Virus record (IMG/VR): IMGVR_UViG_3300032030_000012 | Location: 50,756 to 114,755 of that record | Direction: 5' to 3' (one strand) | Length of the DNA stretch: 64,000 nt | Source: a virus | Taxonomy: Duplodnaviria; Heunggongvirae; Uroviricota; Caudoviricetes | Shown here: positions 1-51,268 of the stretch, piece after piece | Layout of the letters: the number at the start of each line of letters is the position of its first letter | How positions within the stretch are numbered: position 1 is the first letter of the stretch | Position numbers and translations under genes: made by a program | The notes under the pieces: model-generated | Told to the model about the DNA's origin: nothing | Databases searched by the model: none | The model's input: the letters and a program-made list of their open reading frames with translations, nothing else

Positions 1-596
1 GCATATGCAGTAGCTATTTTATCAGCTATATCTTTTAAATTTTTCTTATTTAAATCTATTTCAATACCAAACCTTTTAGCTTGATTCTTAATATAATCGC
101 TATCATCACCATCTATTTTGTAAACATCTCTAACAGTTTTATTCATTCTATAATAGAATTCTTGCCAATTTTCTTCAGTCCATGGTTTAACTTCTGATGG
201 TTTTAATAACTCATCAGGAATATCTGTTAACATACCTGGTATTTTTGCTTCTGTTAAAGGCATTTCAGCTGGCTCATCATAAGCTTCTATTTGATCTATA
301 ACAGGTTTTGGTTCAAATTCAGTTACAAGATTATCAACATATGCTATTTTATAATTAGCTTGTTGTTCTCCCATCCAGATTTCAATAGCATCATCTAACT
401 CTATTGCTCCATCTCCTATTTTATCTTCTACTTCTTTAGCTATCTTAGATATTGTTTTTTCAGTTGGATCTCCAAATTCATCTAATTCATAATAACTTGG
501 AGCTTCTGCGAATGTTGGATCATTTTTTGTTGTAAACCACATACCTTCTTCTGTCATACGACTTATAACTAAATTTAAAATTTCATTTTCTTCCAT
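1..596 (-). CDS. hypothetical acidic protein, 3' end runs off window start
   Basis: Manual translation: ATG at 596 after AAGGTGA RBS, open to position 1 (MEENEILNLVISRMTEEG...). Confidence 0.8.
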   Translation of the reverse strand, partial: MEENEILNLVISRMTEEGMWFTTKNDPTFAEAPSYYELDEFGDPTEKTISKIAKEVEDKIGDGAIELDDAIEIWMGEQQANYKIAYVDNLVTEFEPKPVIDQIEAYDEPAEMPLTEAKIPGMLTDIPDELLKPSEVKPWTEENWQEFYYRMNKTVRDVYKIDGDDSDYIKNQAKRFGIEIDLNKKNLKDIADKIATAY

Positions 597-10894: not shown

Positions 10895-11063
10895 TATTGT
10901 TTAACTCCCTTTCATATATAATATTTTGTTGTAATTGTATTTGTTTTGTCTTTTCTCTTTCAATAGATTCATTAGATCCACATATAACCAAAGTTATCAT
11001 TAAAGCTGCAAAACAAATTACCATTATACACCATTCACTTATCTCAAAATCTCCAAATTGCAT
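10878..11063 (-). CDS. small membrane protein
   Basis: one hydrophobic helix (WCIMVICFAALMITLVICG). Confidence 0.6.
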   Translation of the reverse strand: MQFGDFEISEWCIMVICFAALMITLVICGSNESIEREKTKQIQLQQNIIYERELNNNGTNN

Positions 11064-13090
11064 TAAATTTCCTCCGTAAGCATATCTATTATAGTTGTTT
11101 TATCTAATTTATCTAATGATAAATCATAATCTACCCTATGAATTATTTTCTTATATAATATTTCATCTTGATCTTGATTATTTTTAACAACTACTTCCTG
11201 TAATTCTTCAGTATAAGGTTCATCACTGATTTCGATTAATGAATCTGTCAATAATTGTCTTAATGTTAATTGAGATTCAGAGTACTTATCTAAATAATCA
11301 TATGTTATTTTATTAACATTAGTTCTAGATGTAATTATAGAAGATCCCATATCAAATTTATTGAATATAAATTCTATATTATCTTCATTTACTTTTATTA
11401 AACCTAAAGTAGTTTTATAATTATCATCTGATATATCAAATAAACAAGGTACTGATATCAATACTTTATTTGGATTTATTGTATAATTATTTTCCAATTT
11501 AATATCTTTTTCTGAAGCTAGTATTAATTCGAATGGTATATTTTTACTATTTCTAGTATAATCATTTATAGTTAATAAGAATGAAGTTGGATTACATCTT
11601 TTAGATATTGCAAATAATTCAGTAGCTCCTTTTGGTAATTTAGCATCAGTAACATCTCCTGAAAATACAATATCCCCTGTTTCAGATCTATATCCTGTAT
11701 TCCATCCGAAAGATTGATTCATATTCATTGTATGAATATCTAAATCTATTCTTTCATTATCAAAATTTTTCCAATGAACTCCTACTATCATATCATTTAA
11801 TCTAGGTACTTGTATAGAAGTTCCATATGGTAAATATCCTATATACTGTTTTTCAGATGTAGGAACAGTTATATCTATATAGTTAGGTAAATATACTTTT
11901 TTACCACATAATAATTTATTTATTCTTTTCTTTAAATGACTATATACTAAATCTAAAACTCTGGATTGAACCCATTTTTCTTCTATATTTTTATGTTTTA
12001 AAGTATTCGCATAAGCCTTACCATTTCTAACTTTATATAAAATACTTTCGGTATCTGTTTCTCTATATCTTAAAGAATTTACTATACTTACTTCTCTAAA
12101 TATAGTAGTCTGATCTAAAGCTTTTTCTATACTTTCTTTAGATAATGCTAAAATACTTTCATCTTTTATACTAGTTATATTATCTAATATGCCTTTTCCT
12201 ATAGCTCTATGATATCCTTTTATTCTAGCTAATTTATCTAGTCTATTAATGATTTTATTTATAGATTCAGCATATGAACAACTTCCTTTTTCTCTCTTGA
12301 AAGCTAAGAATAGGTCTTTAAATCTTAAAAAGATTTCAGCAAGACGCTCATATCCATGAGGTTTTCTTATATAGTTATTTAAATAATTATATATTTTATC
12401 AGCATCAGCTTCTTTTATTTTCTTAATTAAATGTTTATTCTTAATTAATAAAGTTTCTCCAGTTGCTTTAAATATTAAATATCTTAGAAACTCAATATTA
12501 CTTTTAGGAACTAGATTATATTTTTCAAACATAGCTATTCTTACTTCTTTATTTGTAATATCATCTACTTGTTCCTGATCAATATAATCTGATAATAGCA
12601 TTATATCTTCTATTGTTTGTTTTGATAGTGCTATTCCAGATGTTAATAATTTCATCATTTTTTCTTTTAATTGATCTTCAGTTATATCTTTAATTACTAT
12701 TAAAGGTATATCTTCTTCTAATTCTGGTATTTCTAATTTTTCATTTGGAATATAAACTAAATTTTCATTATATAAATCTAATGATTCTAATCCATAAGTT
12801 GTAAAATAATGAATTACTTGTTGAGCTATTAATACTTCTATAGGAGTTTCTAATACTGTTTTAAATGATTTATGAAATGTTTGATTCCATTCTTCTGGTT
12901 TTTTACCAAACATTTGAATTGCTAAATCAATTACTTCTTTATCAGCTCCATCTATTCTAGTAAATACTAATCCACTCTTTGCTACATTCTCTTGATTTTC
13001 TTCTATTATATTTGTTGTTGTTACAAATGTTCCATATAAATAAGATTTAAACAATCTTAATAATGCTTCTTTTTGTTTTACTGTTAACAT
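11063..13090 (-). CDS. 675-aa protein: long alpha-helical N-terminal region plus C-terminal TerD-like domain (possible Ro/TROVE-like RNA-binding protein)
   Basis: C-terminal VHW....IDLDIH...FGWN....FSGDVTDA...GATE resembles TerD-type motifs; N-terminal 400 aa helical; own AAGATGTTATA promoter at 13116-13126. Confidence 0.5.
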   Translation of the reverse strand: MLTVKQKEALLRLFKSYLYGTFVTTTNIIEENQENVAKSGLVFTRIDGADKEVIDLAIQMFGKKPEEWNQTFHKSFKTVLETPIEVLIAQQVIHYFTTYGLESLDLYNENLVYIPNEKLEIPELEEDIPLIVIKDITEDQLKEKMMKLLTSGIALSKQTIEDIMLLSDYIDQEQVDDITNKEVRIAMFEKYNLVPKSNIEFLRYLIFKATGETLLIKNKHLIKKIKEADADKIYNYLNNYIRKPHGYERLAEIFLRFKDLFLAFKREKGSCSYAESINKIINRLDKLARIKGYHRAIGKGILDNITSIKDESILALSKESIEKALDQTTIFREVSIVNSLRYRETDTESILYKVRNGKAYANTLKHKNIEEKWVQSRVLDLVYSHLKKRINKLLCGKKVYLPNYIDITVPTSEKQYIGYLPYGTSIQVPRLNDMIVGVHWKNFDNERIDLDIHTMNMNQSFGWNTGYRSETGDIVFSGDVTDAKLPKGATELFAISKRCNPTSFLLTINDYTRNSKNIPFELILASEKDIKLENNYTINPNKVLISVPCLFDISDDNYKTTLGLIKVNEDNIEFIFNKFDMGSSIITSRTNVNKITYDYLDKYSESQLTLRQLLTDSLIEISDEPYTEELQEVVVKNNQDQDEILYKKIIHRVDYDLSLDKLDKTTIIDMLTEEI

Positions 13091-13533: not shown

Positions 13534-13708
13534 TTAATACCTCATTAACCTCATTCATTACTCTTTCATATTCTTTATTATTTTCTTCTATTTGTTGTTT
13601 TAAATCATCAATTTTTTCTTGTTGTCTATGTAGATTCATCATTTCAAAACAGAACCACATAAACATTATAAATATTAGTGCTATCATTATTTTCCAAAAT
13701 TTATTCAT
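13514..13708 (-). CDS. small membrane-anchored coiled-coil protein
   Basis: N-terminal hydrophobic helix then coiled coil; GAGGTGG RBS. Confidence 0.65.
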   Translation of the reverse strand: MNKFWKIMIALIFIMFMWFCFEMMNLHRQQEKIDDLKQQIEENNKEYERVMNEVNEVLNDANNI

Positions 13709-13732
13709 TTTACCACCTCATATAAAATTAAA

Positions 13733-13807
13733 AGGGCTGAGATGTAAAAAATATTGCTTAAAAGGCAATCCCTGATAGGATTTTAAAAAGGAACATCTTA
13801 TAGCCCT
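13733..13807 (-). ncRNA. array unit 6: handle plus two small hairpins
   Basis: AGGGCU AUA AGAUGU UCCUU ... UU ACAUCU C AGCCCU. Confidence 0.8.
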
Positions 13808-13818
13808 AATATAATACT

Positions 13819-13948
13819 TAGGAATGGAAAGTAAACATTTTATGCGGCTGCTCTACCAACTGAGCTATATCGCCCGAAGACAATAACAGGACTCGAACCT
13901 GTGACCTGCTGCTTGGCCTAATTTAATAAGGAACTTTCTATATCCCTA
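13819..13948 (-). ncRNA. array unit 5: handle plus circularly permuted tRNA opened in the anticodon loop
   Basis: GCAGC-AGGUC-T arm(ACAGG UUCGAGU CCUGU)-UAUUGUC-UUCG-GGCGAUA-UA-D arm(GCUC AGUUGGUA GAGC)-A-GCCGC. Confidence 0.88.
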
Positions 13949-13966
13949 AAATTAATAACATATAAA

Positions 13967-14045
13967 GAGGCTGAGAAGTAAACTACTTTCAAACCCAATT
14001 TGAATGCGGAATACTCCGCTGATATAAGGAACTTCTTATAGCCTC
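13967..14045 (-). ncRNA. array unit 4: handle plus two small hairpins
   Basis: GAGGCU AUA AGAAGU UCCUU ... GCGGA/UCCGC and UUCAAA/UUUGAA hairpins ... UU ACUUCU C AGCCUC. Confidence 0.8.
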
Positions 14046-14058
14046 AGAAAACAAATCC

Positions 14059-14171
14059 AATAAGCTGAAAACTAATTTAAACTGCCCAATTAAGGACAAT
14101 TCTTGGAGTCGAACCAAGCAGGATCCGAAGATCCATAACCATGTATCATAAGGAAGTTTTTATAGCTTATT
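14059..14171 (-). ncRNA. array unit 3: handle plus permuted tRNA mimic opened between acceptor and D arm
   Basis: D-like hairpin, GGAUC UUCG GAUCC, T arm CUUGG UUCGACU CCAAG, closed acceptor-like stem AUUGUCC/GGGCAGU. Confidence 0.75.
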
Positions 14172-14177
14172 GTCAAA

Positions 14178-14299
14178 GCAAGCTGAAATGTAATAATGGC
14201 TCACTAGATCGGATTCGAACCGATGACTTAGGGTTATGAGCCCTACCCTCTGACCAACTGAGGTACAAGTGAAAAGGATAGGAACATTTTATAGCTTGC
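14178..14299 (-). ncRNA. array unit 2: handle enclosing a complete tRNA
   Basis: GCAAGCU AUA AAAUGU UCCUA ... UU ACAUUU C AGCUUGC. Confidence 0.85.
14197..14272 (-). tRNA. tRNA with CAU anticodon (Met, initiator-like anticodon stem), CCA encoded
   Basis: 76-nt cloverleaf UCACUUG..CCUC/GAGG..UAGGG CU CAU AA CCCUA..AUCGG UUCGAAU CCGAU..CUAGUGA G CCA. Confidence 0.85.
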
Positions 14300-14312
14300 A
14301 GATATATTATAT

Positions 14313-14437
14313 TATAGCTGAAAAGTAATTTTAGGGCCTTAGCCACTTAGGCGATACTATACTTCGTATAGCAGCACGACTCGAACGTGCATCACTGGTT
14401 TTCAAGACCAATTTAAAAGGAACTTTTTATAGCTATA
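14313..14437 (-). ncRNA. array unit 1: handle plus permuted tRNA opened between D arm and anticodon arm (UGA anticodon loop)
   Basis: AUUGGU CUUGAAA ACCAGU, T arm GCACG UUCGAGU CGUGC, closed acceptor UGCUAUAC-GAA-GUAUAGUA, D arm GCCU AAGUGGCUA AGGC. Confidence 0.85.
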
Positions 14438-14455
14438 TATTATATAACAACTTTC
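14437..14455 (-). promoter_or_regulatory. extended -10 promoter driving the RNA array
   Basis: AAAGTTGTTATATAAT immediately 5' of unit 1; same AAGWTGTTATA motif precedes many genes. Confidence 0.6.
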
Positions 14456-14519
14456 TTAATCAATTCTTCTATATCTATAGCTAATAGATACAATATCATA
14501 ATATCTTGCTGCCCCTTCT

Positions 14520-15257
14520 CTATTTTTTAGGAAAACAATCAAGCCATGTATGAGCTGCTTTTACAAATCCACATGTTCGTAATATTCTTATAGCTTTGTA
14601 ATTTTCATTATTAGCAAAATTTCTTCTACTTTCATTTTTATTACCTAATATAGATATAAGTTCTGCATAACAAGTATTTAATATTTCTACATCTTCACAA
14701 TCTAATATTTTTTGTTTTACTTCTTGCTCTCTAGCATATAATTCTTTTGGATTATATTCTTCAGGTAAATCTAATTGTGTAAATAATAACAATTTATTAA
14801 GTAAAGCTCTTATATCATCTATACAAGATTCTATAGTTACAGGCATATTTAGATATTCAGTTGATACTGAAGGATTATCTTTATTCTTAATATAAAAATC
14901 TATTAATTGTTCTGCTTTAACATCAAAATCATGTCCTATCAATCTTTTTAGTTCTTTAAGATGATTACTATAATAAACACACCATCTAGTTATTAATGAT
15001 GAAAAAGCATCTTTATTAACTCCTTTTAAACCAGGTCTATAGACATCTAAAATTCTTTTTACATGAGCATGAGATACTCCATATGCTTTTAATATCAATA
15101 TTTCATTATGGAGTTCTTGTACTACTCTATTATTTTTAGAAGGAGAGGCTATTATATCTTTATATTGCTGTTCTGATGTATAATAGTCTTCATCAAAGAA
15201 CCCTGATACACCTGTTTTAGGATTTATCTCTTTTGAGATAAAATTTTTATATATCAT
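14520..15257 (-). CDS. hypothetical protein
   Basis: 245-aa ORF, translationally coupled to ParB-like gene. Confidence 0.75.
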   Translation of the reverse strand: MIYKNFISKEINPKTGVSGFFDEDYYTSEQQYKDIIASPSKNNRVVQELHNEILILKAYGVSHAHVKRILDVYRPGLKGVNKDAFSSLITRWCVYYSNHLKELKRLIGHDFDVKAEQLIDFYIKNKDNPSVSTEYLNMPVTIESCIDDIRALLNKLLLFTQLDLPEEYNPKELYAREQEVKQKILDCEDVEILNTCYAELISILGNKNESRRNFANNENYKAIRILRTCGFVKAAHTWLDCFPKK

Positions 15258-16132
15258 TATTCTTCTACCTCCTCATCATCTTCTGCTTTATGAAAGTTAG
15301 GACCATATGAAACAAAGTTAGGTGCTAAGTTTTCATCTTTCTTACTTAGATCTTCATATAATCTATTAATGTTACATCTAATTGATCTAGCATTATAGTT
15401 ATATCTAAAATCAATTTCATTAATACAAGTTTCAACGTTAGTCCATTTTTGCATTAAATGTCCTTCTTCTGTTAATATTCTAAATAATTTCTCATTATCT
15501 ACTTCAGGGAATTTATAACAGAATATTATAGAAGTAACTAGATCTGACATATCACTTGATTTAAGTCTAACTTGATTTTCTTTATAATAATCCATTACAG
15601 AAAATACAAATTCTAAACATTCTTTCCCTTTGTTATACATTTCTTCAGTTACATTTAATCTACCGTTTTTAATAGCAGTACCTGGAGCTTTTTTAGTATT
15701 AAATAATACTGTGCACATGTTATTTACTGTAACACATTTTTTACCATGTTCTTCAAACATTTCATTAAATAGTTTTACTATCCATTGATAACTTTCTTTT
15801 CCTGTTTCAGCATAACATTCAATATAATCCATCAAATTCCAAGGTGTTGCATTGATATTCATAACAATACAATCATCAATTTTTAACCCAGGCCTTATAA
15901 TGAAGTTAACAGGAAGTCCTCTTCTTTTACAAGCTTCCAATCTTCCTTGACCATCAATAACTTCAAATTTTTCATTTACTATAATAGGTACAGGAATGTA
16001 ACCTATTTTATCAAAAGATGCTAATATCTTTGATACACGATCTTCTAATACCTTTCTATTTCCTAATACTCTTTTGAATGCATCATAATCTGTTGTTCTA
16101 AACATTTCTTCTGAACTTTTTACATAATTCAT
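15257..16132 (-). CDS. ParB/Srx-like N-terminal domain protein
   Basis: PIIVNEKFEVIDGQGRLEACK motif. Confidence 0.75.
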   Translation of the reverse strand: MNYVKSSEEMFRTTDYDAFKRVLGNRKVLEDRVSKILASFDKIGYIPVPIIVNEKFEVIDGQGRLEACKRRGLPVNFIIRPGLKIDDCIVMNINATPWNLMDYIECYAETGKESYQWIVKLFNEMFEEHGKKCVTVNNMCTVLFNTKKAPGTAIKNGRLNVTEEMYNKGKECLEFVFSVMDYYKENQVRLKSSDMSDLVTSIIFCYKFPEVDNEKLFRILTEEGHLMQKWTNVETCINEIDFRYNYNARSIRCNINRLYEDLSKKDENLAPNFVSYGPNFHKAEDDEEVEE

Positions 16133-19222: not shown

Positions 19223-19837
19223 CTAAATGCCATAATCTTTTAAACTAAACCTAGTTTTTATATTATGGTCATTACAATAATTAAATATAGCTTTTATCAT
19301 ATAACTCAAAGATTTCTCTCCTAAATTTTTAATTTTTCTTATTTCATAAGGCTCTTTATTAAAGAAATCTTGTAAAGTATATATACGAGATCTTAAAAAA
19401 GCATTATATGATCTAACTCCTAATATTTTCTCTCTACTAGTAGGTTTTAAATCATAAACTATTGTTCCTATTGTAGTGTTCCATCCCTCTTTATATTCTC
19501 TAGATGATATATTGAGTGGATTTTCCTCTATTAGCTTTCTAATTATTTCTTTTTCTTTATCAGTTAAAGGTTCATCTAAAGCTTCTATAGTATTATTAAT
19601 AGCATTATTCTGCCAAGTTATTTCTTCTCCTTCTAAATATTTATGTCTTACCATATATCTTTCTATTAGATCTTCAGGATACTCTCTTATTTCATTAAAA
19701 TATCTAACATATACTTCATGTCTTACTTCTCTATCTCTGGGACTAACTGATATATTTTTAGGATTTATCCAGCTTTTTACAACTACTCCTATTAAATTAT
19801 TCTCTACTACAACTATATCACCAAAACAAAATTTCAT
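19223..19837 (-). CDS. protein with C-terminal RNA polymerase alpha-CTD-like domain
   Basis: LGVRSYNAFLRSRIYTLQDF...IRKIKNLGEKS resembles alpha-CTD (LSVRSYNCLKRAGI...VRNLGRKS). Confidence 0.7.
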   Translation of the reverse strand: MKFCFGDIVVVENNLIGVVVKSWINPKNISVSPRDREVRHEVYVRYFNEIREYPEDLIERYMVRHKYLEGEEITWQNNAINNTIEALDEPLTDKEKEIIRKLIEENPLNISSREYKEGWNTTIGTIVYDLKPTSREKILGVRSYNAFLRSRIYTLQDFFNKEPYEIRKIKNLGEKSLSYMIKAIFNYCNDHNIKTRFSLKDYGI

Positions 19838-50585: not shown

Positions 50586-51268
50586 TTAAAAATCTCTGCC
50601 TCCTTTGTACCCTGTAGATTTATTTTAATAGCTCTACAATCAAAAGATAAATCTAATTGCATACAAGCAAGTGTATTTTGACCTACTTTATCATTTAAAT
50701 AATCATCATCTCCAATTGTAAAATAAAAATTTCCTAATCCTCTTCTTTGTCGAATACTAATAATGTCATAAATTTTATCTCTATCAAAATAACTATCAAG
50801 TAGTGTAAATTTATCCCATATTACTAAAGGAGCATTTTCCATACCTGAATATAATATTTTCAAATCATGAATAGGTTTTAAAGAATCTTTTTCTTCTTTA
50901 TAATCTATCAATCTCTTATAATCTTCTACAAGTAATTTAGTATCCACATAAATAATATCTTCAACTCTTATATCTTGAATTACACATTGTTTAAAATAAG
51001 ATTGAAGCATAAGATATGCTAAATAATCTAAATTAACATAATCAGCAAATTCAAAACGAAGATTATATCTATCTGTCACAGCAGAAGTCATATTTTTAAA
51101 AACATTATATAATTTAGAAGGTATAATTTTTTGATCAGTGAATCCAAGACATCTATCTGGAATTTGAGAATATTTTATATATTCATTATATCTTCTAAAT
51201 ACTGCAGCTTTGAAATCATCAGTTGCTTCTTTTAAATTAGGAATTAAATCATATAAAACATCCTCCAT
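50582..51268 (-). CDS. degenerate DnaC/IstB-like helicase loader
   Basis: LVIWDK...IISIRQRRGL..FYT Walker-B region; no Walker A; next to dnaB. Confidence 0.5.
   Translation of the reverse strand: MEDVLYDLIPNLKEATDDFKAAVFRRYNEYIKYSQIPDRCLGFTDQKIIPSKLYNVFKNMTSAVTDRYNLRFEFADYVNLDYLAYLMLQSYFKQCVIQDIRVEDIIYVDTKLLVEDYKRLIDYKEEKDSLKPIHDLKILYSGMENAPLVIWDKFTLLDSYFDRDKIYDIISIRQRRGLGNFYFTIGDDDYLNDKVGQNTLACMQLDLSFDCRAIKINLQGTKEAEIFK

Follow-up and report, generated by a model that had tools for sequence, protein, structure and literature searches.

Y RNAs of the YrlA type (Rfam RF02553; Chen et al. 2014, PMC4201824) have a tRNA-like topology, in which the two ends of the RNA pair as a terminal helix that bears a T arm, a capped acceptor-like stem and a D arm, and RNAs of this type also occur in phages (PMC4201824, PMC12135203). 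The Ro60 protein of a phage binds Y-like RNAs encoded upstream of its own gene (PMC12135203). The present analysis concerns an RNA of comparable build encoded in a 64,000-nt stretch of caudovirus DNA, hereafter the window, which covers positions 50,756 to 114,755 of the IMG/VR virus record IMGVR_UViG_3300032030_000012 (178,755 bp; CheckV estimate, 87% complete). The phage DNA has a G+C content of ~26% and its genes lie almost all on the minus strand; the RNA, unit 5 of an array of six, is found on that strand at 13945..13821. It consists of a circularly permuted tRNA body, the cargo, carried by a bulged helix that we call the handle (a 3–4-bp outer stem, an AUA/C internal loop, a 6-bp inner helix and a UCC bulge followed by U). 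Mimicry of tRNA by Y RNAs is already known; here a like fold is attached to a different, strongly conserved handle, and in our best reading unit 5 would be a Y-RNA-like tRNA mimic that differs in its handle and probably also in the protein it works with. Precedents for a permuted order of tRNA elements exist elsewhere. Circularly permuted tRNA genes are reportedly found in Cyanidioschyzon merolae, some other algae and archaea; such genes mature via a circular intermediate, a splicing endonuclease acting at a bulge-helix-bulge junction, and give working tRNAs with conserved anticodons. Two-piece transfer-messenger RNAs (tmRNAs) are said to arise from permuted ssrA genes in alpha-proteobacteria and some cyanobacteria.

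Unit 5 was delineated by direct reading, folding and orthologue alignment. Read 5′ to 3′ on the minus strand, it opens with the 5′ handle strand GGAUAUAGAAAGUUCC (13945-13930), recognized by motif match and composed of GGA-UAUA-GAAAGU-UCC, that is, outer stem, internal loop, inner helix and UCC bulge. An A/U-rich linker of 12 nt (13929-13918) leads into GCCAA (13917-13913), a remnant of anticodon-loop positions 34-38, which is followed by the 3′ strand of the anticodon stem, GCAGC (39-43; 13912-13908), pairing with GCCGC further on. The variable loop AGGUC (44-48; 13907-13903) and the T arm ACAGG-UUCGAGU-CCUGU (13902-13886) were placed with the Rfam YrlA alignment, the latter also by covariation. 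Next come the acceptor 3′ strand UAUUGUC (13885-13879), a UUCG cap (13878-13875) and the acceptor 5′ strand GGCGAUA (13874-13868), all read directly, and then, by alignment, U8 and A9, the D arm GCUC-AGUUGGUA-GAGC (13865-13850) and A26 (together 13867..13849). The 5′ strand of the anticodon stem, GCCGC (27-31; 13848-13844), is followed within 13848..13833 by AU (positions 32-33) and the 9-nt 3′ linker AAAAUGUUU, and the unit closes with the 3′ handle strand ACUUUCCAUUCC (13832-13821; ACUUUC-CAU-UCC), identified by covariation as the partner of the 5′ handle strand. The acceptor stem has seven pairs, two of them G-U (G1-C72, G2-U71, C3-G70, G4-U69, A5-U68, U6-A67 and A7-U66), and direct reading finds every residue expected of a tRNA elbow and core: U8, A14, G15, G18, G19, G46, C48, U54, U55, C56 and A58. 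Each element that an earlier, sequence-only reading of the locus had listed could thus be located base for base on the minus strand, in the order and place given there, and the topology it had proposed (T arm, capped acceptor stem, D arm and an enclosing anticodon-type stem) is what the Rfam YrlA model aligns to. That reading had also held that the RNA cannot be aminoacylated as encoded, which agrees with the lack of both CCA and a free acceptor end in unit 5. As encoded, unit 5 gave no tRNA call with ARAGORN; when its halves were rejoined at 33/34 (GCCGCAU joined to GCCAAGCAGC), a join point picked by us, the same program reported a canonical 76-nt cloverleaf, tRNA-Gly(GCC).

Orthologues of unit 5 were found at L081:1914-2057 (on a 202-kb contig) and L014:3491-3611, in phages whose flanking protein, encoded beside the array, is only 44–46% identical to that of the window phage. 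The handle is inserted at the same point, after positions 32-33, in all three. The anticodon stem of L081 keeps GCCGC/GCAGC, including a C-A mismatch, and that of L014 (AUUGC/GCAAU) has three pairs changed on both sides; the acceptor stems read UAUUGUC/GGCGAUA in the window, CUAGUGU/ACGCUAG in L081 and CAUUACC/GGUAAUG in L014, the first acceptor pair being G1-C72 in the window and A1-U72 in L081. The acceptor is sealed by UUCG in the window, by a 26-nt loop in L081 and by UUAG in L014, so that the UUCG seal noted in the sequence-only reading is present here and is not a general feature. The same holds for its surviving ‘Gly-like’ GCC-AA: the remnant is there (GCCAA), while L081 has GUCAA and L014 GUCCA, so that the glycine label does not stand against GUC in both orthologues, which moreover carry C33 (L081) or C37 (L014). 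Rejoined in the same manner, the halves of both are called tRNA-Asp(GUC) by ARAGORN. The 3′ half of unit 5 is in turn identical to the 3′ half of ordinary bacterial tRNA-Val(UAC) genes, which were the only matches in one metagenome scan with this half. Because the 3′ half is that of tRNA-Val(UAC), GCC is not conserved and the first acceptor pair changes, no identity is preserved and no amino acid is assignable to unit 5, whose body is of a generic Val/Asp/Gly type.

T-arm-first units of like build occur in at least five further phages (L020, L063, L023, L024 and L079), in which the body is opened at 29/30 and Thr- or Lys-type anticodon loops are retained. In an alignment of seven related units, taken from phages with a flanking protein 40–46% identical, 93% of the cells are paired and 15 of the 27 pairs are changed on both sides, a result that none of 500 shuffles equalled; slid registers of the alignment all gave 35–46% pairing. 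Changes on both sides affect six of the seven acceptor pairs, and both the T stem and the inner handle helix are 100% paired with three compensatory pairs each. At the tertiary pair 15-48 (reverse Watson-Crick), three units have G-C and the other four A-U, so that it covaries in 7/7; U8, A14, G18, G19 and the T loop do not vary among the seven. The comparison speaks directly for the predicted L-shaped fold. The sequence-only reading had counted a lack of conservation in related phages against its case, and orthologues are indeed present in L081 and L014, with a fold that covaries. Judged from these comparisons, unit 5 is real, conserved and under selection, and because anticodon, acceptor identity and cap vary while the fold covaries, selection would seem to act on shape, not on decoding.

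The handle that carries this body recurs throughout a six-unit array (units 1–6; 14434..13735, minus strand), delimited by motif search and folding. The units start with RG(C/A)UAUARRANNUUCC, a motif with six matches in the window against 1.28 expected (0/100 shuffles reach six) and with no copies in the 178.7-kb record beyond the array's six, and they end with UUA(C/G)NNN(U/C)C(AGCY or AUUCC). In each of the six, the hexamer preceding UUCC is exactly complementary to the hexamer that follows UUA, the arm pairs being AAAAGU/ACUUUU, AAAUGU/ACAUUU, AAAACU/AGUUUU, AGAAGU/ACUUCU, GAAAGU/ACUUUC (unit 5) and AGAUGU/ACAUCU. Pairing should take place within a unit, because the arms match the partner of their own unit and in none of the six are they complementary to the strand of the neighbouring unit; RNAfold closes all six units through the handle helix. 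Across related loci the handle follows the pattern 5′ GRC-AUA-(6 nt)-UCCU ... U-(6 nt complement)-C-GYC 3′, with GGCAUARRRNGUUCCU as the consensus of its 5′ strand, and two U residues, one following UCC and one preceding the 3′ strand, never vary, although our filter did not demand them. Unit 5 fits this pattern (GGA-UAUA-GAAAGU-UCCU ... U-ACUUUC-CAU-UCC) with a perfect inner helix and with deviations in the outer stem, which is GGA/UCC only, and in the 3′ loop (CAU for C). Searches with E values up to 10 over 13600–14600, and up to 0.1 over seven related loci, matched the handle to no Rfam family, including self-cleaving ribozymes and CRISPR repeats; the handle-RNA family is found neither in Rfam 15 nor in the literature searched. 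A K-turn reading of the handle was rejected on direct reading, as there are no G-A pairs and both bulges lie on one strand. An integron attC site or other inverted-repeat element is unlikely in view of a cargo that scores 66 bits as a tRNA and of arms that differ between units yet are complementary within them. The handle 5′ strand, ...GAAGUUCCUAUU, resembles an FLP FRT arm; it has no inverted partner, and the likeness was taken as coincidence.

The cargos themselves are very diverse. Units 4 and 6 hold plain hairpins and unit 3 a tRNA mimic with UUCG in place of the anticodon loop; in distant phages the cargos measure only 15–30 nt, and arrays reach up to seven units. Where the cargo is a tRNA body it may be opened at 33/34, 29/30, 26/27, 8/9 or in the variable arm, a natural series of circular permutations, which speaks for the L-shape itself as the object of selection.

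The same six cargo types as in the window array recur at L081:1687-2459 and L014:2948-3848. The order is shuffled in L081 relative to the window, the unit-6 type (AAUCC...GGAUU GCC UUUUAAGC) always coming last, and L014 has an extra unit with a Ser-CGA body in which the handle replaces the long variable arm. Unpermuted tRNAs nested in a handle are found at 14197-14272 (minus strand) of the window, L081:1687-1800, L014:3087-3228 and L013:2899-3017; they have U1-A72, G73 and an encoded CCA in common, with CAU as the anticodon in the window and L081 and unusual anticodon loops in L014 and L013. At L081:2177-2368, in the counterpart of window unit 1 (an orthologue with a body of Ser-UGA type, opened at 26/27), the acceptor 3′ strand continues into an encoded ACCA, and ~100 nt of inserted sequence separate this from the acceptor 5′ strand; several units in L016, L018, L029 and L079 encode G-CCA before the closing loop. 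Because (A)CCA is encoded ahead of the loop or insert, some handle cargos may be opened to a chargeable end.

About 640 nt downstream of the array, and co-oriented with it, lies the gene for a 675-amino-acid protein with helical and TerD-like domains (11063..13090, minus strand), which gene order makes the best candidate for a partner of the handle. The protein has more than 1,300 homologues, and the flanking protein of some relatives is 70–82% identical. IMG/VR searches with exact handle patterns or with the single protein returned near-identical contigs only; a profile of the protein led to 70 viral loci and 42 genome-assembly loci, the latter mostly contigs of metagenome-assembled genomes (MAGs), many of them evidently phage. 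The viral loci contain 125 copies of the handle 5′ motif. For 82 of these a perfect partner (6 bp, C and 3 bp in that order) lies no more than 170 nt away, as against 2 for a reversed-arm control. Nearly all partnered units are situated on the same strand as, and at most ~1.1 kb upstream of, the gene for the 675-residue homologue. At least one handle unit was present at 36/70 of the viral loci under strict rules and at 17/42 of the genome loci under slightly looser ones. From this adjacency and from the conserved unpaired nucleotides of the handle we infer that the protein may bind it.

A structural model of the 675-residue protein (predicted local distance difference test, pLDDT, 80) places a C-terminal TerD-like sandwich behind ~400 residues of helical repeats. 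The TerD fold matched 2qz7 with Z 9.3 over 142 residues (VIA) and 3ibz, 2kxt and 2qng with a Foldseek probability of 1.0; with the whole model, both Foldseek and VIA found the TerD domain only, and the N-terminal domain folded alone had no Foldseek match. A profile search against PDB sequences yielded nothing useful. NCBIfam matched residues 320-492, weakly and only in part, to the MXAN_6230/SCO0854 RING-domain family (E 1.6e-6; 26.6 bits, where the cut-off is 600). Phages are not the only carriers of the protein family, because homologues were also seen in a Geminocystis isolate (L106) and on large contigs from cyanobacteria (L108, L120). In the more distant L036 and L077, the 675-residue gene and the handle RNAs lie inside clusters of 15–20 tRNAs within 10 kb, with a phage tmRNA nearby.

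What, then, might unit 5 be? We hold it to be probable that it is a non-decoding tRNA mimic on a handle RNA, serving as a tRNA look-alike in a phage RNA–protein system. Its body would be a complete class-I tRNA, probably captured from a Val/Asp/Gly-type tRNA, circularly permuted, with the opening at 33/34 of the loop; a stable C(UUCG)G tetraloop would close its acceptor stem, and A/U linkers would connect both new ends to the conserved bulged helix. The handle would constitute the constant module, and the cargo the variable module, of a small-RNA family belonging to this phage group and to some bacteria. Once transcribed, the RNA would be docked by its handle onto a protein, most plausibly the neighbouring 675-residue product, and the L-shaped body would be displayed to bind, recruit or sequester a factor that recognizes the tRNA elbow and the acceptor-T minihelix; tRNA-processing or tRNA-modifying enzymes, an exoribonuclease or a host tRNA-targeting nuclease are candidate targets. 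Unit 5 is probably not a working, decoding tRNA, because the orthologues have GUC with C33 or C37, acceptor identity and cap are variable, and the handle also holds a normal tRNA, other permutations and hairpins. It is tempting to extend this, more tentatively, to the array as a whole: the six units could possibly form the RNA part of a second Y-RNA-like ribonucleoprotein, one that does without Ro60, in which the TerD-domain protein grips the handle and interchangeable cargos (whole tRNAs, permuted bodies, elbows, hairpins) capture or redirect the host tRNA-handling machinery during infection. Such a system would be common among large phages and occur in some bacteria as well, yet have no entry in Rfam, in Pfam or in the literature searched.

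Several observations weigh against the view of unit 5 as a displayed mimic. Its anticodon stem contains the C-A mismatch, its thermodynamic z-score of -1.05 is unremarkable by itself (unremarkable folding energies are common for tRNAs), and the linkers between handle and body look unstructured, so that the handle would not be a rigid extension of the anticodon stem. The 675-residue protein is connected with the handle RNAs by adjacency alone, and in the window phage three small open reading frames intervene between its gene and the array. No recognized RNA-binding domain was found in it, Pfam, PHROGs and NCBIfam giving nothing useful. In an exhaustive comparison of its N-terminal domain, Ro60 of Thermus phage phiLo came only 45th (Z 5.8, root-mean-square deviation 6.4), within noise for helical repeats, with the longest alignment (198 residues) among the 50 matches listed. 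Finally, unit 2 is a complete, unpermuted, CCA-ending tRNA(CAU) of 66 bits placed between the handle strands, which a processing or expression cassette would accommodate equally well.

A cassette of that kind is a serious rival, one that we nevertheless consider unlikely. The handle would then be a leader–trailer helix which stabilizes each RNA or marks the cuts in a polycistronic transcript, and the cargos would act alone, unit 2 becoming an ordinary tRNA and unit 5 a free decoy for a host tRNA-directed nuclease or enzyme. Besides unit 2, the great diversity of the cargos is consistent with it, as are the failure to find an RNA-binding domain in the neighbouring protein and the layout of the array, in which the units are only 13–23 nt apart and a consensus scan found no convincing promoter or terminator for individual units. 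However, AUA/C, UCC-U and the U that precedes the 3′ strand, all of them unpaired and strictly conserved, have the look of a recognition surface and not of a mere clamp, and RNase III would need a longer helix than the 10 bp of the handle. Nor would a cassette explain why the handle RNAs keep so closely to a single protein family in very distant phages and MAGs.

Comparison with YrlA bears on a second alternative, according to which unit 5 is a true YrlA-family Y RNA whose Ro60 (Rsr) partner comes from the host or is encoded in the 13% of the phage genome that the record lacks. The Rfam YrlA model matched 13847-13909 (minus strand) with 36.1 bits (E 5e-6) and the L014 orthologue with 40.7 bits; the module order is identical (T arm, capped acceptor-like stem, D arm, enclosing stem), its helices in unit 5 being supported by covariation, and phages are known to encode YrlA-like RNAs. 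Like YrlA RNAs, unit 5 and its kin offer no anticodon that could be used and combine nearly invariant D and T arms with an acceptor stem of variable sequence; the RNA gene stands beside a protein gene, often as one of several RNAs. Yet the match stays below the gathering cut-off of 69 bits and comprises the tRNA-like core only (model positions 24-84 of 114), leaving the Ro60-binding stems unaligned. The terminal helix has, unlike that of YrlA, an AUA/C loop and a UCC bulge, and neither the unit 5 handle nor the family consensus contains the motif GNCGAAN0-1G (CGAA) that binds Ro60 near the 5′ end of Y RNAs (PMC4201824, PMC12135203). No match to TROVE (PF05731) was obtained in the 178,755-bp record, itself an estimated 87% complete, in a search whose controls matched; the handle RNAs instead track the gene for the TerD-domain protein, a neighbour with helical and TerD domains in place of the TROVE and vWA domains of Ro60. 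Handle arrays furthermore run to up to seven units, with whole tRNAs and other permutation points among the cargos. Because the CGAA-type motif, a Rfam score above threshold and a TROVE gene are all lacking, unit 5 does not belong to the Ro60/Y-RNA family by its defining features; the likeness to YrlA, as we read it from sequence, is topological only, and a Ro60-dependent Y RNA is improbable. The Yrl1 and Yrl2 RNAs of Thermus phage phiLo (PMC12135203; PDB 9L5Y) resemble the handle RNAs in being stem-bulge-stem RNAs directly upstream of, and co-oriented with, the gene for their binding protein (here the likeness is one of adjacency only). They differ in that the CGAA bulge is defining there and no tRNA-like domain has been reported for them, and in that the protein ends in a vWA domain where ours has TerD.

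Unannotated YrlA-like modules, 76–80% identical to the unit 5 core, were also noticed in Cronobacter phage GAP32 (L007:1487-1595; JN882285.1, ~310,150-310,230), Erwinia phage Kaldavass and Xanthomonas phage XbC2. The GAP32 module scores 44.7 bits over the full YrlA model, and the GAP32 genome has neither a TROVE match nor a homologue of the 675-residue protein; these modules look like orphan tRNA-mimic RNAs of jumbo phages.

Much less probable still is that unit 5 is a genuine permuted tRNA gene, in which the handle is removed, the ends are ligated, the cap is opened by RNase P and a 3′ enzyme, and CCA is added to give a tRNA (Gly or Asp). With the genes of the Cyanidioschyzon merolae type unit 5 shares the placing of the 3′ half before the 5′ half, the joining of the acceptor strands by a short intervening sequence and the cloverleaf obtained on rejoining. 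Rejoining at 33/34 restores a canonical loop, AU-GCC-AA, and yields the tRNA-Gly(GCC) call; ARAGORN lists 12 tRNAs in the phage record, none of them for Gly or Asp; and the base after C72 is U, as in bacterial tRNA-Gly. Maturation of such a product would have a parallel in the YrlA RNA of M. smegmatis, which is cleaved by RNase P and then receives CCA (PMC4201824). Against this, GUC with C33 or C37 in the orthologues breaks the near-universal rules of U33 and purine 37, acceptor identity is not conserved, and the handle also flanks hairpins and a mimic with UUCG for its anticodon loop. C(UUCG)G being a classic extra-stable cap, its presence suggests sealing rather than a processing site. Nor is there a bulge-helix-bulge junction: AUA and UCC lie on the same strand, 6 bp apart, instead of forming two 3-nt bulges on opposite strands, 4 bp apart; the phage record has no match to RtcB. 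Thus, of the YrlA and permuted-tRNA-gene topology put forward in the sequence-only reading, the topology stands, whereas ‘permuted tRNA gene’ in the functional sense does not, there being neither a bulge-helix-bulge nor a conserved anticodon; a bacterial-virus setting and handle flanks common to non-tRNA cargos set unit 5 further apart from those genes. The permuted ssrA genes show that bacteria, too, can encode a tRNA-like domain in permuted order, with a loop separating its acceptor strands. In tmRNA that loop is excised to yield a chargeable CCA end with alanine identity, and there is a tag reading frame; unit 5 lacks both CCA and a reading frame, and its cap measures 4 nt. The idea that unit 5 is a functionless, decayed remnant of tandem or rearranged tRNA genes, which the many tRNA genes near the locus in this phage and its relatives might invite, can practically be dismissed: it is contradicted by acceptor strands complementary to each other and by compensatory changes that affect the 15-48 pair as well as the helices of acceptor, T arm, anticodon arm and handle, among phages with a flanking protein only 40–46% identical.

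If unit 5 is indeed a displayed, non-decoding tRNA mimic, handle arrays would provide a tractable system for asking what such a body does for a phage, and they point to the widespread helical and TerD-domain family as a possible RNA partner. They also matter for annotation, as tRNA finders miss or mis-call handle units. ARAGORN thus reports a tRNA-Ser(tga) at 14366-14437 (minus strand) of the window, a mis-call that spans the 5′ handle strand and part of the permuted unit 1 and has no match to the Rfam tRNA model. Elsewhere in the window, two genes upstream of the array, a ParB-like partition/nuclease protein is encoded at 15257-16132 (minus strand; PHROG 12305, E 9e-34), and the gene at 19223-19837 (minus strand) specifies a protein with a region resembling the C-terminal domain of the RNA polymerase alpha subunit.

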